A DNA stretch of 5,891 nt from a plasmid, in assembly GCF_054482525.1 (NCBI RefSeq), contig NZ_JBTHVG010000008.1; one strand, 5' to 3'. How positions within the stretch are numbered: position 1 is the first letter of the stretch; each line of letters starts with the position of its first letter. Below the pieces are notes generated by a model, which saw only the letters and a list, made by a program, of their open reading frames with translations, had not been told where the DNA came from and searched no databases. The translations under genes were made by a program, and so were the position numbers. Shown here piece by piece: positions 415 to 4,761 of the stretch.

Positions 415-761
415 CACAGAGTGACAGAGCTGGAAACACATTTGCTGAACGCCTTAGAGCAGCTGCAACAGGACTATATGCAGCGGCTGAGCGAATGGGA
501 GAGCGCCTTCGTGGAATTGCAGAAGATGTTTTCGCTTACGCAACGGGACAACGCGATGCTGAACGAGCGGGTCATGCAGTTGAGTCAGCAGGTGCAGCAC
601 TTGAGCGAGCAGACAGAACGCTTGAGCCAGTTATACAGCGAGAACTGGAGATAAGAGAGGAACGGTTGATGCAGGAGCGCGAACATGCGTTATCCCTGGA
701 ACGGGAGCGTCAGCTGGAAATACAGGAACGCACACTGGATGGCCCTTCGCTGGGATGGTGA
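3..761 (+). CDS. mbeA: Relaxase MbeA, C-terminal portion (continues from 5099..5891 across the window ends)
   Basis: I translated frame 3 codon by codon from nt 3 and found no stop until TGA at 759-761. The track reports only 300..761 because it begins at the first ATG. The single base left over at 5891 plus nt 1-2 completes one codon (gtc), so the two parts are in frame and sum to 517 aa. Confidence 0.8.
   Translation, partial: CQRGCDIKRDENQRRYSPVHSLDREIAGKTPGRGERGDDAAQEGRVKAGREYGHDVTGDSLSSVYREWRDALVSWRTDTDEPGRNQEAGRDIAETEREDMGRGVCAGREQEISGPSVREISRDDSLSGERVGTSEGVTQSDRAGNTFAERLRAAATGLYAAAERMGERLRGIAEDVFAYATGQRDAERAGHAVESAGAALERADRTLEPVIQRELEIREERLMQEREHALSLERERQLEIQERTLDGPSLGW
421..654 (+). 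CDS. mbeD: Mobilization / entry-exclusion protein MbeD-like, 77 aa
   Basis: GTG start at 421, directly after the mbeB stop and nested inside mbeA in a different frame. The product is a small glutamine/leucine-rich, probably coiled-coil protein (MTELETHLLNALEQLQQDY...). Position and size match the ColE1 mbeD arrangement as I recall it. Confidence 0.65.
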   Translation: MTELETHLLNALEQLQQDYMQRLSEWESAFVELQKMFSLTQRDNAMLNERVMQLSQQVQHLSEQTERLSQLYSENWR

Positions 762-966
762 AACCATGAAAAATGGCAGGTTCATTGGATTAAGGCGGAC
801 TAATGTGCTCTGTGCCATCTGGTTGCATAGGTATTCATACGGTTAAAATTTATCAGGCGCGATCGTGGCAGTTTTTCGGGTGGTTTGTTGCCATTTTTAC
901 CTGTCTGCTGCCGTGATCGCGCTGAACGCGTTTTAGCGGTACGTACAAACTGTTGTTATGTTAAAT
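760..966. other. cer-like Xer (XerC/XerD) multimer-resolution site: accessory sequences plus core at 938..966
   Basis: The stretch 846-946 (gcgatcgtggcagtttttcgggtggtttgttgccatttttacctgtctgctgccgtgatcgcgctgaacgcgttttagcggtacgtacaa) closely matches ColE1 cer as I remember it. Core: XerC-arm-like GGTACGTACAA (938-948), central region actgttg (949-955), XerD-arm-like TTATGTTAAAT (956-966). Each arm is one mismatch from the cer arms GGTGCGTACAA and TTATGGTAAAT. Confidence 0.7.
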
Positions 967-988
967 ACTGATGGGCTTTCCTGCTTGA

Positions 989-1873
989 TTATCCGAAGAG
1001 CAATCCCCAAACACTTTTAGCTACAGAAACAATGGCTTTCTTGGCGACTTTAGCCACTGACGCTATTGGTTTAGGTAGTACGGTGTCTATTATATCATCA
1101 ATAGCTCTATCTACGGTGTCTGCGAACCCGTCCTTTGCCGTTTCTACAATTTCTTTTGTTTTTATTTCGTCTTTTACTTGATGCACCACTCCGCTCTGTG
1201 CTTCCTTTGGGAGCGATCTTACTATTGCCTCCACTAACCTTGAAATGTTATAACCTTCATTCGCAGATACAGATATAACGGGATGTTTGGTAAAACCGAA
1301 TCGTTCTATTAAGTATTCTTCCTTTTTTCTAATATTTATTTGTTGTGAGGGTGATGGTTGGTGTTTTTCTTCATCCCATTCGCGGAATGGCTCAATCTTG
1401 TCGACTTGGTTTAAAACAAACAACACTTTTTCATCACCACCAACTGGTTTTAAAACATTTTTATAAAAGTGCTCATCAGCTGAAAATGCTCGATCATCAC
1501 CTTTAACAACCCAAAGCACCAGATCTAATTCTGGGAGAAGATTTTTATACAACTCTTCATATTCTATATCTTTAGCTTCATTTTCACCTACACCTGGTAT
1601 ATCTATTATTTTAATTGTTCTATCACCAAATGAAATTATTAATTCCTGAACCTTTCTCGTGCATGCTTCTACATCACTCACTGCACATACATTACCTTTA
1701 AAGATAGAATTACATAGGCTGGATTTACCAGCGCCGGTTTTACCCATAATCCCTATTACTGGTTCGTAATTAATAACATTTCTAATTTTGTTATAGACAG
1801 ACTTGCGAATCTCTTTAGGTAGAACATCCACAGCTTCTTTGATTAATTTTATACCTTGCGTATTGTTTTCCAT
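989..1873 (-). CDS. P-loop GTPase of the YfjP/YkfA/YeeP (MMR_HSR1-like) family with C-terminal amphipathic tail, 294 aa from the MENNTQ start
   Basis: The track ORF is 989..1960 on the minus strand. I prefer the ATG at 1873 (MENNTQGIK...): it has a GAGGA about 11 nt upstream and avoids overlap with the upstream gene, which ends at 1909. Motifs read in the translation: G1 GIMGKTGAGKSS, G3 DIPG, G4 NQVD, G5 SVSA. Conserved blocks ELDLVLW, DEHFY and QPSPSQQ resemble the E. coli CP4-prophage GTPases YkfA/YfjP/YeeP as I recall them. The C-terminus (PKPIASVAKVAKKAIVSVAKSVWGLLFG) looks amphipathic. Confidence 0.8.
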   Translation of the reverse strand: MENNTQGIKLIKEAVDVLPKEIRKSVYNKIRNVINYEPVIGIMGKTGAGKSSLCNSIFKGNVCAVSDVEACTRKVQELIISFGDRTIKIIDIPGVGENEAKDIEYEELYKNLLPELDLVLWVVKGDDRAFSADEHFYKNVLKPVGGDEKVLFVLNQVDKIEPFREWDEEKHQPSPSQQINIRKKEEYLIERFGFTKHPVISVSANEGYNISRLVEAIVRSLPKEAQSGVVHQVKDEIKTKEIVETAKDGFADTVDRAIDDIIDTVLPKPIASVAKVAKKAIVSVAKSVWGLLFG

Positions 1874-1908
1874 AGTTACTATTTTCCTCATTTTGTTGTT
1901 CATATGAA

Positions 1909-2343
1909 TTAACGGAAGCTTGTTTTTCTTTCTTCTTTTTCTTCCCCGCATACAGAACATTTGTAATGGCGATAGGTATCAGAACTCCCACTAAGATACC
2001 AATTGTGTCTTTTACCATGAACTCGCTCTGTAAAACATCTCACGCATCTTTCTTTCACATTGCAATAATCATCGACTGCAATTTCAACAAATCTTTCATG
2101 CCTTTCGCCTTCTTGTTCAGCGCCACAGTCGATACACTTTTTTACAGTTGTGCACTTGAAATCGTATTTATAACTTTCCTCTCCGTATTTATGCTGTTCT
2201 TTTTGTATAGTGCGATTGCAGTCAGGGCATAGTTTAGAATATTTACAAGTCTCACCATCAATAAGCTTATAGTTTCCTCCGTGTATACCTACCCCACACT
2301 TAGCCTTGATTGCTGCATTTTTTATGCTATCCCAAAAGCCCAT
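1909..2343 (-). CDS. Cysteine-rich small protein (144 aa) with three tandem CX5CX2C motifs plus a terminal CX2C; putative multi-zinc-ribbon protein
   Basis: ATG at 2343 (minus strand) is preceded by GGGAGA at about 7 nt spacing. The translation has 12 Cys arranged as CKYSKLCPDC, CTTVKKCIDC, CNVKERCVRC and CSVC, spaced about 30 aa apart. It ends 35 nt before the GTPase start, so the two are probably co-transcribed. I recognise no family. Confidence 0.7.
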   Translation of the reverse strand: MGFWDSIKNAAIKAKCGVGIHGGNYKLIDGETCKYSKLCPDCNRTIQKEQHKYGEESYKYDFKCTTVKKCIDCGAEQEGERHERFVEIAVDDYCNVKERCVRCFTERVHGKRHNWYLSGSSDTYRHYKCSVCGEEKEERKTSFR

Positions 2344-2389
2344 GGAAAAATCTCCCTACGATTAGTTGATATAAGTTGAACAATTCATC

Positions 2390-2440
2390 GACATGATTAT
2401 ACACGTATAGTGTGTGGATATATAAAAATGAGTATGGATT
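2390..2440 (-). promoter_or_regulatory. Candidate sigma70 promoter for the Cys-rich/GTPase gene pair (perfect -10 TATAAT on the minus strand at 2396..2401)
   Basis: The minus strand reads ...acgtgTATAATcatgtcg... about 50 nt upstream of the 2343 start codon. The -35 region is AT-rich and weak (TATATA-like). This is an inferred position within a 227-bp AT-rich intergenic gap (2344..2570). Confidence 0.3.
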
Positions 2441-2570
2441 TATGCTCTGTATAATGTTTTTGTTATGTTAAATATAGCGCTGAAAAAGTGGGGGCACTGG
2501 ATAAACTTCGTGTTTTTCCCGCAAAGATAGTATTGGAAAGTCATTGTCTAATTCATCCAAGATAAATATT

Positions 2571-3383
2571 TTACGAATTTGTGAGTTTGCTTGAGATTTT
2601 TATATATTCAGCCTTTATTAACTCATTGCCATATTTTTTCTCGAGTCTTTTAACAATGAAATGACCTCGAGCCATATCTTGATAATAGTCGGTAAACATT
2701 GTGTTTAATGTGGCTCCAGTTAGTGCTCCAATAACGGGAACGACTTGAGCTGCCATTTTTTCCGTAATAACTATACCAAATCTTGTTGCAACTTTTTCTA
2801 TTAACGAAGCTAACCATTTTCCTGTTTGTACTGAAGATGCGTTTTTGACAGCAATGTTAGAAATTTCTTTGGATAAATCTTGTACGATCTCGGCAGTCAA
2901 ACTTCTTGTTGCATAGTATGCAGTATTAGCTGCATCATCGTCATCAGATGGTCCTCCCAAGGAAAACACCTCTAAGCAGGCCAGTTTGGTATCAATATTA
3001 TCTAGCTCAAAACCTTCACTTCTTGCTATGTCAGCAATTGAACGAAGCATAATTGTCGTTGAAACCGGTAACTCAATTGCTAATGCAGAAAAGCCAAAAG
3101 CGCCACCAATGGCTCCAGATACGGCCGCAAAGAATTTATTTGTCTTAGTTGATGCTATTCGGTTAGGTTCATTGTCTAGACTCCATAAGGCCGCATCAGC
3201 AGCTTTGTGGAGCGATTTTTCTACTAGACTATAAATTTGCTCTTCTGCCCCTTTGGGAAGTTTACTCATTAAGTAATCTATTGGGGTTCCAACTAATTGG
3301 GTTAATGTTTCAGTAATTGTATCTTGTTCTAATAATTCTACGGCCCTTTCTAAAGCCCGCAGATCTCCTTCTTCAAGATGCAT
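2571..3383 (-). CDS. EcsC-family-like protein (putative), 270 aa
   Basis: Long minus-strand ORF. Its ATG at 3383 is preceded by AAAGGA at about 9 nt. It has Gly/Ala-rich hydrophobic segments (AAVSGAIGGAFGFSALAIELPVSTTIMLRSIADIARSEGF and VVPVIGALTGATLNTMFTDYY) that I associate with EcsC-family proteins. That assignment is from memory and unverified. Confidence 0.6.
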   Translation of the reverse strand: MHLEEGDLRALERAVELLEQDTITETLTQLVGTPIDYLMSKLPKGAEEQIYSLVEKSLHKAADAALWSLDNEPNRIASTKTNKFFAAVSGAIGGAFGFSALAIELPVSTTIMLRSIADIARSEGFELDNIDTKLACLEVFSLGGPSDDDDAANTAYYATRSLTAEIVQDLSKEISNIAVKNASSVQTGKWLASLIEKVATRFGIVITEKMAAQVVPVIGALTGATLNTMFTDYYQDMARGHFIVKRLEKKYGNELIKAEYIKISSKLTNS

Positions 3384-3536
3384 ATAATGAATCCTTTATG
3401 AATCAATCGATAGTCTACTTTTGTAAGTGATTCGTCTTGGGAGCTTACCTTGAGCGAGTTCAGTGATTCAATAGGCGAGATGCCGACATCATTGTTGTCT
3501 GTGAAGCAGGAGTGATGAAAAGATCAAAGGATCCTC

Positions 3537-3565
3537 TTGTGATCCTTTTTTTCTGCGCGTAATCT
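3537..3565 (+). promoter_or_regulatory. RNAII (primer) promoter: -35 TTGTGA (3537..3542), 17-bp spacer, -10 TAATCT (3560..3565)
   Basis: Positional and sequence equivalent of the pBR322/pMB1 RNAII promoter (TTGAGA - 17 bp - TAATCT). The transcription start is predicted at G3573. Confidence 0.7.
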
Positions 3566-3574
3566 GCTGCCTGT

Positions 3575-3682
3575 AAACAAAAAAACCACCGCTACCAACG
3601 GTGGTTTGTTTGCCGGATCAAGAGCTACCAACTCTTTTTCCGAAGGTAACTGGCTTGGTGGAGCACAGATACCAAATACTGT
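3575..3682 (-). ncRNA. RNAI antisense copy-number control RNA (about 108 nt)
   Basis: The minus strand beginning at 3682 reads acagtatttggtatctg..., the RNAI 5' end. It is complementary to the 5' end of RNAII. Its promoter (-35 TTGAAG, -10 CTACACT) lies at 3689..3718 on the minus strand. Confidence 0.85.
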
Positions 3683-3688
3683 CCTTCT

Positions 3689-3718
3689 AGTGTAGCCGCA
3701 GTTAGGCCACCACTTCAA
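3689..3718 (-). promoter_or_regulatory. RNAI promoter (-35 TTGAAG, -10 CTACACT on minus strand)
   Basis: The reverse complement of 3689..3718 reads ttgaagtggtggcctaactgcggctacact, matching the pBR322 RNAI promoter apart from one base in the spacer. Confidence 0.65.
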
Positions 3719-4119
3719 GAACTCTTAATATCTCAATCCACCTTGTCCAGTTACCAGTGGCTGCTGCCAGTGGCGCTTTGTCGTGTCTTACCGGGTTGGA
3801 CTCAAGACGATAGTTACCGGATAAGGCGCAGCGGTCGGGCTGAACGGGGGGTTCGTGCACACAGCCCAGCTTGGAGCGAACGACCTACACCGGGCCGAGA
3901 TACCAACAGCGTGAGCTATGAGAAAGCGCCACGCTTCCCGAAGGGAGAAAGGCGGACAGGTATCCGGTAAACGGCAGGGTCGGAACAGGAGAGCGCACGA
4001 GGGAGCCACCAGGGGGAAACGCCTGGTATCTTTATAGTCCTGTCGGGTTTCGCCACCTCTGACTTGAGCGTCGATTTTTGTGATGCTCGTCAGGGGGGCG
4101 GAGCCTATGGAAAAACGCC

Positions 4120-4140
4120 AGCGGCGCGGCCTTTCGTTGC
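4120..4140 (+). other. ColE1-type origin of replication (RNAII-to-DNA transition)
   Basis: The sequence aaaaacgccagcggcgcggcctttcgttgcc corresponds to the pBR322 ori switch region (aaaaacgccagcaacgcggcctttttacgg). Confidence 0.65.
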
Positions 4141-4369
4141 CCTTTGCCTTTTTGCTCACATGTTCTTTCCGGCCTTATCCCCTGATTCTGTGGATAACCG
4201 TATTACCGCCTTTGAGTGAGCCGGCACCGCTCGCCGCAGCCGAACGACCGAGCGTAGCGAGTCAGTGAGCGAGGAAGCGGAAGAGCGCCGGAACGTGCAT
4301 TTTCTCCTTACGCATCTGTGCGGCATTTCACACCGCATATAGCGCTCTTTTCTTACAATCTGCACTGAT

Positions 4370-4440
4370 GCCGCATGGTTAAGCCAGTATACACTCCGCT
4401 ATCGCTACGTGACTGGGTCATGGCTGCGCCCCGACACCCG
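4370..4440 (-). other. oriT / bom (basis of mobility) with nic region near 4381..4385
   Basis: The reverse complement of 4376..4440 reads cgggtgtcggggcgcagccatgacccagtcacgtagcgatagcggagtgtatactggcttaacc, the pBR322 bom sequence, which contains the nick site in the TGGCTTA context. It lies between the origin and rom, as in pBR322. Confidence 0.65.
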
Positions 4441-4529
4441 CTAAAACCTGCTGACGCGCCCTGACGGGCTTGTCTGCTCCCGACATCCGCTCACAGGCAA
4501 GCTGTGACCGTCTCCGGGAGCTACATGTG

Positions 4530-4721
4530 TCAGAGGTTTTCACCGTCATCCCCGAAGCGTGAGAGGCAGCTGCGGTAAAGCTCATCGGCGTGCTCGTGAA
4601 GCGATTCACAGATGTCTGCCTGTTCATCTGCGTCCAGTTCGTTGAGCTTCTCCAGCAGCGTTAATGTCTGGCTTCTGATAAAGCGGGCCATGTTAAGGGC
4701 GGTTTTTTCCTGTTTAGTCAC
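4530..4721 (-). CDS. rom: Rom/Rop, RNA-one modulator (63 aa)
   Basis: The translation MTKQEKTALNMARFIRSQTLTLLEKLNELDADEQADICESLHEHADELYRSCLSRFGDDGENL differs from pBR322 Rop, as I recall it, at only two residues. It has a GTG start with GGAGG upstream and is convergent with RNAII, as in pBR322. Confidence 0.9.
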   Translation of the reverse strand: MTKQEKTALNMARFIRSQTLTLLEKLNELDADEQADICESLHEHADELYRSCLSRFGDDGENL

Positions 4722-4761
4722 TGATGCCTCCGTGTAAGGGGGTATTTCTGTTCATGGGGTA

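Follow-up and report, generated by a model that had tools for sequence, protein, structure and literature searches.

What does a cer-type Xer site do at the edge of plasmid cargo? In the plasmid described here such a site, with a central region of 7 bp, abuts a set of low-GC genes, and this raises two questions: whether the short central region sets the site apart from the cer of ColE1, and whether the site has served multimer resolution only or has also been the point at which cargo was gained. Below we follow these questions from the anatomy of the site to its neighbourhood in relatives and then to a second Xer-like core within the cargo.

The plasmid and its cargo

The window, i.e. the whole stretch of DNA analysed, is a complete circular plasmid of 5,891 bp and matches pMV-v4-SK2-O-b of Klebsiella pneumoniae (NZ_CP085865.1) at 100%. 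The plasmid is a ColE1-type replicon. RNAI lies on the minus strand at 3577-3680 (Rfam RF00106, 68.6 bits); it was the sole match of the Rfam search, and Rfam holds no family for Rcd. With RNAI on the minus strand, RNAII is on the plus strand, which fixes the orientation of the replicon, and the RNAII -35 hexamer TTGTGA is found at 3537-3542 (plus). The plasmid also bears rop (4530-4721) and mobilisation genes of the mbeA/B/C/D type.

The GC content drops from 0.53 at the mobilisation end (1-739) to 0.37-0.39 over the cargo and is 0.54 in the ori. According to open reading frames and annotation, the cargo is encoded on the minus strand and consists of two blocks. Block 1 (967-2443, GC 0.37) comprises a GTPase gene (989-1873, stop codon at 989-991), which is the first gene of the cargo, and a Cys-rich ORF of 144 aa (1909-2343). 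Block 2 is a gene of the EcsC family (2571-3383). The right-hand edge of the cargo lies at about 3514-3518, where homology with plasmids of other cargo restarts.

Anatomy of the cer-type site

The cer-type Xer site spans 740-966 on the plus strand, and its core, GGTACGTACAA-ACTGTTG-TTATGTTAAAT, occupies 938-966. When all six frames were scanned for the consensus of both arms at a spacing of 6, 7 or 8 bp, this core was the sole strong match; its XerC arm deviates from the consensus at one base, its XerD arm at none. By analogy, XerC would bind the arm at 938-948 and XerD the arm at 956-966 (both plus). The first differs from the ColE1 cer arm in a single position (G4>A), and the identical variant is present in pET-ATCC-159-3. 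The second is an exact match and is the same as the arm of E. coli dif. The core of ColE1 cer, taken from 6,647-bp plasmids of the ColE1 type, is GGTGCGTACAA-TTAAGGGA-TTATGGTAAAT. Hence, unlike ColE1 cer, which has the 8-bp central region TTAAGGGA and the XerD arm TTATGGTAAAT, the window site combines a 7-bp central region with a dif-type XerD arm.

The window and ColE1 cer are near-identical over 730-948, and the alignment contains exactly one gap, of one base, within the central region (949-955, plus). The same one-base gap appears against six of the eight other aligned ColE1-like plasmids, namely those with 8-bp central regions. Thus, the spacer is 7 bp and not 8. Parses of the core with 6 or 8 bp were considered as well; none exceeded the scan thresholds, and the alignments pin the borders of the arms, so that no canonical 6- or 8-bp spacer with shifted borders comes into play. 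The preliminary description, which had named a cer-like site with near-consensus arms and 7 bp between them, against 8 in ColE1 cer, is borne out in these respects.

Next to the XerC arm, positions 740-937 (plus) hold the accessory sequences, by analogy the region bound by ArgR and PepA. Together with the XerC arm they are about 94% identical to ColE1 cer, and the accessory region is near-invariant across nine ColE1-like plasmids with unrelated cargo. It contains the ARG-box-like sequence GTTGCATAGGTATTCATA (822-839, plus), a putative ArgR site 99 bp upstream of the XerC arm. By eye it fits the ARG-box consensus, and it is unchanged in every aligned plasmid, ColE1 included. The role of ArgR at this box comes from the literature on ColE1 cer (PMC2831885, PMC5357621).

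In the same region a Pcer-like promoter may be recognised by eye (823-849, plus), with the -35 hexamer TTGCAT at 823-828, a spacer of 15 bp and the -10 hexamer TAAAAT at 844-849. A generic scan for sigma-70 promoters and terminators over 700-1010 made no calls; it missed these hexamers because it requires spacers of 16-18 bp. A putative Rcd-like RNA region follows at 846-936 (plus). It consists of a long hairpin, at about 853-925, and the sequence GCGUUUU after it. The predicted RNA fold has -38.4 kcal/mol (z = -4.96), and none of 200 shuffles was equally stable. The existence and the direction of Pcer and Rcd are known from earlier work (PMC2831885, PMC4393325); rcd is transcribed the same way as RNAII (PMC2831885), and the Rcd-like region of the window also has the direction of RNAII. 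The hairpin is conserved, fits the putative Rcd RNA and is phased as in ColE1 cer. The order accessory sequences, XerC arm, XerD arm runs along the plus strand, as RNAII does, and agrees with the constant orientation of cer relative to oriV/RNAII in ColE1-like plasmids (PMC2831885), in which RNAII meets the ArgR side first.

In sum of its parts, the site has two 11-bp arms with a central region in the range of 6-8 bp, the roughly 180-200 bp of accessory DNA and an ArgR box about 100 bp from the core; the 8-bp central region that belongs to ColE1 cer in the strict sense is absent. Homology and analogy to ColE1 make it very probable that 740-966 is the cer-type multimer-resolution site of the plasmid. 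The 7-bp spacer marks an allele, and the site stays within the cer family.

Spacer length among cer-like sites

Xer sites are 28-30 bp long, and their central regions measure 6-8 bp and are not conserved in sequence (bioRxiv 10.1101/2024.04.05.588136; PMC5357621). We scanned genomes, one per species, with the pattern CGTACAA-N6-8-TTATGKTAAAT. Of the cores found, 36 had the complete cer-type arm GGTRCGTACAA. Spacers of 8 bp were the most frequent (23 cores), followed by 7 bp (10) and 6 bp (3), and the distinct core sequences of these lengths numbered 12, 5 and 3. Other 7-bp central regions on related plasmids are TACGGGA (on 3.27-kb plasmids with the EcsC gene), TGTGACG (on pMUB-MIN14-5), TGCGACG and TAAGGGA. 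We considered the last of these as an experimentally studied site such as that of ColK; it belongs to 7.9-kb plasmids of the pHUSEC41-3 type. The 7-bp spacer is, hence, a common natural variant inside the published range, and the special standing that it had been given at first was overstated. Among the tested plasmid sites of E. coli, none with a spacer of exactly 7 bp is known to us. A literature search for a 7-bp central region together with XerC returned no match, and the precedent for a tested 29-bp site is attP of the Vibrio phage VGJphi (PMC5357621, PMC4246890).

What makes the window core atypical is the position of XerC cleavage. Its central region begins with A, whereas those of the 12 distinct 8-bp cores all begin with T, as do those of four of the five other distinct 7-bp cores. 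This leading A may suggest a crippled cer, in which the usual leading T was deleted and dimer resolution was lost; indeed, TACTGTTG minus T gives ACTGTTG. However, the ACTGTTG core is identical in all members of the cargo family that were aligned or scanned (the window, four relatives and one metagenome contig), with backbones diverged by up to 10%, and the family is widespread, with E. coli, Salmonella and Klebsiella as hosts on several continents. Moreover, 7-bp cores are frequent in cer-like sites whose accessory regions are intact. We therefore regard a crippled site as highly improbable.

The backbone/cargo boundary in ColE1-like plasmids

The cer region is matched by more than 1,100 plasmid records, and the matches to plasmids with other cargo end at window positions 966-974. 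The end of the XerD arm, 966, is the last position that is homologous to such plasmids. From there to the stop codon of the GTPase gene it is 22 bp, and the GC content falls from 0.53 to 0.37, in agreement with the earlier remark that the site is about 20 bp from the 3' end of the cargo and coincides with a break in composition. We took 14 distinct sites and compared them, by ungapped identity and with 200 bp upstream, in 88 plasmid pairs whose downstream DNA is unrelated. The mean identity was 95% for each of the two arms and 89% for the accessory region; the central region between the arms had 41% and the downstream DNA 26%. On these comparisons, a cargo boundary at the Xer site is the rule among ColE1-like plasmids, and in relatives with other cargo homology stops exactly at the site. 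Strict co-variation of the central region with the downstream cargo was also considered and rejected: TCATGGCT and TTAAGGGA precede differing DNA in some contigs.

Two cases resolve the boundary to the base. pMTY1881_NA3 and pACN001-C are 100% identical over 500 bp upstream and through the XerC arm, split at base 2 of the central region and are unrelated thereafter. In pRGF99-1-6k the cer accessory sequences and GGTGCGTACAA are followed, in this order, by TCATGCCT, TTATGTTAAAT, an insert of 504 bp with a ydgH/bhsA-like gene, GGTTCGTTCAA, TTAAGGGA, TTATGGTAAAT and CCACTTACTGTCT, so that after GGTTCGTTCAA the central region, the XerD arm and the downstream DNA of ColE1 are found. This layout is that of a cassette inserted exactly at the junction of XerC arm and central region of ColE1 cer, with ColE1 as the empty site. 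XerC is known to cut at this junction, and at cer-type sites as well as in IMEX the exchange is made by XerC only, the Holliday junction being resolved otherwise (PMC5357621, PMC7399989, PMC4246890). The break between pMTY1881_NA3 and pACN001-C and the insertion in pRGF99 thus make Xer-mediated cargo exchange well supported, at the level of sequence, for the ColE1-like family. That an Xer site may be a point of cargo exchange has already been published (Tran et al. 2012, Zakharova et al. 2002; via PMC10454011, PMC8683028, PMC6764390).

The right-hand boundary is different in kind. It coincides with the edge of the RNAII promoter, about 20 bp upstream of the -35 hexamer, and is as sharp as the left one. 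The arm-consensus scan found no Xer-like core at this far boundary (3384-3534), as had been stated before. Since the right boundary is sharp without an Xer site, a sharp edge at an essential element is not itself evidence of site-specific capture.

This sharp right edge favours a reading in which Xer had no part in placing the cargo of the window. Cer, cargo and the 5' part of the ori would then have moved by homologous recombination, or the cargo would have come in by illegitimate recombination, and the boundary would meet the XerD arm only through selection that keeps cer whole. The relatives add to this. The window's cargo is shared by nine PLSDB records, 13 E. coli RefSeq plasmids and one metagenome contig. 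Within this family the segment 740-3775 (cer, cargo and 5' ori) is diverged by at most 1.5%, against 2-10% for mob, rom and oriT, which means that the entire cer travels with the cargo. The window and pACN001-C are about 99% identical at the mobilisation end, and over the roughly 200 bp of cer accessory DNA they differ at 16 positions; the last exchange thus falls upstream of cer and not within the core. Hence, the latest exchanges carried cer along with the cargo, presumably by homologous recombination in the conserved flanks and not by crossover at the core. However, homologous exchange covers the spread of the block, not the first abutment of cargo on the XerD arm, and the break at base 2 of the central region and the pRGF99 insertion are left unexplained. 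We give an arrangement of the cargo without Xer, including the preservation of the boundary by selection, somewhat less than an even chance.

A second Xer-like core within the cargo

The cargo itself contains a second, dif-like Xer core that the preliminary description had overlooked when it reported no further Xer-like site. It lies at 2444-2473 (plus), between the Cys-rich ORF and the EcsC gene and in direct orientation with respect to cer, and reads GCTCTGTATAA-TGTTTTTG-TTATGTTAAAT. Its XerD arm is exact and its XerC arm matches in 7 of 11 positions; the 15-mer TTGTTATGTTAAATA is common to this core and the cer core. Dinucleotide shuffling of the cargo, repeated 20,000 times, produced an exact XerD arm in 251 cases, and in 7 (3.5e-4) this arm had, at a distance of 6-8 bp, a XerC-like arm as good as that of the window. 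The core is thus non-random by this measure, and it is a further feature that is left unexplained if Xer had no part in the cargo; in that case it would be a chance or decayed match in AT-rich DNA. Its drift among relatives speaks in favour of the latter. The window and pSTEC711_3 have a spacer of 8 bp. Two further relatives have the same length together with a G>A change in the XerD arm, and in pE1246_2 and the metagenome contig the spacer is 5 bp.

The segment between 938-966 and 2444-2473 is bracketed by two direct Xer cores, as a cassette would be. Hence, a tentative reading, to which we assign a rather low probability, is that the present cer core is an attL-like hybrid, formed when a circular cassette of about 1.5 kb (949-2454, with the GTPase gene and the Cys-rich ORF) integrated by XerC exchange. 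The incoming site would have been GCTCTGTATAA-ACTGTTG-TTATGTTAAAT and the target GGTACGTACAA-TGTTKTTG-TTATGTTAAAT, the 8-bp cer of an EcsC-carrying ColE1-like plasmid. The 7-bp spacer would have arrived with the cassette, and 2444-2473 would be the attR-like scar. The deletion junction implied by this integration is GGTACGTACAA joined to TGTTTTTG (in longer form GCGGTACGTACAA joined to TGTTTTTGTTATGTTAAATATAGCG), and the circle junction is GCTCTGTATAA joined to ACTGTTG (in longer form TATGCTCTGTATAA joined to ACTGTTGTTATGTTAAATACTGATGG).

Besides the two direct cores, several observations are in agreement with such an integration. The central region of the second core begins with T, as in all 8-bp cer cores, and that of the present cer with A. 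The architecture of pRGF99 is identical, and there ColE1 is the demonstrable empty site. The two cargo blocks also occur apart. The EcsC gene alone, at about 91% identity, is found on 3.27-kb ColE1-like plasmids; the GTPase is a YeeP-like island protein, and the homologues examined are located in genomic islands of Providencia and on other contigs, without EcsC. A conserved GTPase-EcsC operon elsewhere, which would speak for the cargo as one unit, was also considered; the homologues examined gave no instance of it. Finally, XerC-only integration between unequal spacers is established for VGJphi (PMC4246890).

Other observations weigh against the integration of a cassette. No plasmid with an empty site (cer joined to ...ATAGCGCTGAAAAAG/EcsC) was found in PLSDB, the E. 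coli RefSeq plasmids or a metagenome pattern scan, and neither was an excised-circle junction or an independent copy of the GTPase block elsewhere in them. In PLSDB block 1 is present in only nine plasmids, all of the window's own family, and the metagenome scan yielded one plasmid of this family and three chance matches. Thus, the block is known from one context only, in contrast to the pRGF99 cassette. The second core is not conserved as a site in close relatives, given its 8- or 5-bp spacer and the G>A change in the XerD arm, and the change in spacer length resembles slippage in GTT repeats. The XerC-like arm is poor. The first central bases of the putative partners, A and T, differ, which would disfavour ligation.

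We suggest that the second core is probably a relic; by its sequence it hints at a past insertion of some of the cargo through the recombinase of the host that would also serve cer. Xer-mediated capture, proposed earlier as a possible route by which the cargo was acquired, is well supported for the ColE1-like family, on the strength of pMTY1881_NA3/pACN001-C and pRGF99, and is only a possible route for the window plasmid, for which neither an empty site nor a circle junction came to light in these collections. Likewise, the statement that there is no second Xer-like site is valid for the far boundary and not for the interior of the cargo.

Proposed working of the site

By analogy with ColE1 cer, we suggest that ArgR and PepA bind the accessory region of about 200 bp (740-937), with XerC on 938-948 and XerD on 956-966. 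XerC would exchange a single strand pair between 948 and 949, and the Holliday junction formed in this way would be resolved without catalysis by XerD, so that dimers would be converted to monomers. The embedded Pcer/Rcd unit may delay cell division while dimers last. Sequence anatomy, homology and the breakpoints in relatives are the direct evidence here; from these we infer protein binding, strand exchange and the function of Rcd.

The conserved ColE1 backbone ends with cer. Directly past the XerD arm the slot for cargo opens, and it closes about 20 bp short of the RNAII promoter; for this reason the low-GC cargo starts 1 bp past the arm. The point of XerC exchange would also be a spot at which ColE1-like plasmids swapped or gained cargo, and the second core at 2444-2473 may be the scar of one such event. 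The steps are modelled on published mechanisms (PMC5357621, PMC7399989, PMC4246890).

Comparison with known systems

In orientation relative to the ori and in position at the junction of backbone and cargo, the site resembles ColE1 cer. The plasmid also shares its plan, variable cargo with an Xer site at one side, with small ColE1-type plasmids such as those of the qnrB19 model (Tran et al. 2012) and pAM1, as described in PMC10454011, PMC8683028 and PMC6764390. However, the variable regions of those plasmids are bounded by Xer and oriT, whereas the other cargo edge of the window is the RNAII promoter and not oriT.

The site belongs to a known plasmid family, a known range of 6-8 bp and a known kind of backbone/cargo junction, and for the window plasmid alone the significance is small. 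What the comparison of relatives provides is base-resolution evidence for cargo exchange at the XerC cleavage side of cer; its sources are a single recombinant pair and a single inserted cassette whose empty site is known. These comparative data back a published and thinly documented idea, namely that host Xer helps small multicopy plasmids to gain genes, defence-like and resistance genes among them.

Among integrative elements the likeness is to the IMEX VGJphi, which has a 29-bp site with a 7-bp central region (PMC5357621, PMC4246890). XerC exchange of VGJphi at unequal spacers leaves two direct Xer sites, and this layout matches the window as well as pRGF99. Unlike for VGJphi, the putative target is a plasmid cer and not chromosomal dif, and the gene cassette, whose mobility is putative, is without replication or phage functions.

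In the pdif modules of Acinetobacter the flanking sites are inverted, and the modules recur in many contexts. The cores of the window are, in contrast, direct, one of them is degenerate and drifting, and the block is known from a single context. The likeness lies in cargo genes of small plasmids that are bracketed by Xer-like cores (PMC7399989, PMC5790767). It is conceivable, if on balance unlikely, that ColE1-like plasmids of Enterobacterales build up their cargo slot by serial XerC-mediated insertion of cassettes into cer. With the same reserve, each promoter-less or self-contained gene cassette would come with a central region and an XerD arm of its own, and a degenerate core would be left behind. 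If true, serial insertion would be the enterobacterial counterpart of the pdif modules, with direct sites in place of inverted ones.

Xer cores in the cargo and in a related plasmid

The cargo contains a second Xer core (window 2444-2473), which is dif-like, reads GCTCTGTATAA-TGTTTTTG-TTATGTTAAAT and has the same orientation as cer. The match is statistically non-random; its spacer, however, is not constant in length and comprises either 8 or 5 bp across near-identical relatives. These changes look like slippage in a GTT repeat.

In the relative pRGF99-1-6k (region 3239-3802) two direct Xer cores flank a cassette of 504 bp that carries a ydgH/bhsA/mcbA-like gene; the second core retains the ColE1 central region and XerD arm together with the downstream exc2 sequence. 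The cassette is a clean insertion at the XerC cleavage junction of the ColE1 cer.

ColE1-type cer is also present on short contigs from assemblies labelled as Cutibacterium, Streptococcus, Corynebacterium, Varibaculum, Pseudomonas and others (loci L014-L110 of the one-genome-per-species core scan), and the accessory sequences of these sites are enterobacterial. Most likely, such contigs carry cer from contaminating E. coli plasmids.

Cargo genes

The cargo (989-3383) is possibly a defence or stress module. It encodes a YeeP-like TRAFAC GTPase, with weak matches to LeoBC/LeoA in PADLOC, a 144-aa Cys-rich ORF with no family match, and an EcsC-family protein matching the PADLOC candidate PDC-S29 (E = 2.7e-10). 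Unlike in the window cargo, the neighbour of EcsC in the 3.27-kb EcsC plasmids is a different small, Zn-ribbon-like ORF.

Replication and mobilization region

pSTEC711_3 is near-identical to the window throughout, except for a stretch of ~650 bp over oriT/rop (window 4101-4760), which is ~5% diverged. This diverged stretch indicates local recombination between ColE1-like plasmids. The plasmid family of the window has TTGTGA as its RNAII -35 element (window 3537-3542), where related plasmids have TTGAGA and ColE1 has TTGAAA; the variant might influence copy number.

Two RefSeq proteins look like annotation artefacts across functional non-coding DNA: the 52-aa ‘replication initiation protein’ (window 3702-3860, minus strand), lying within the RNAII/ori region, and the 53-aa ‘mobilization protein’ (window 685-846, plus strand), overlapping the cer accessory region and the ARG box.
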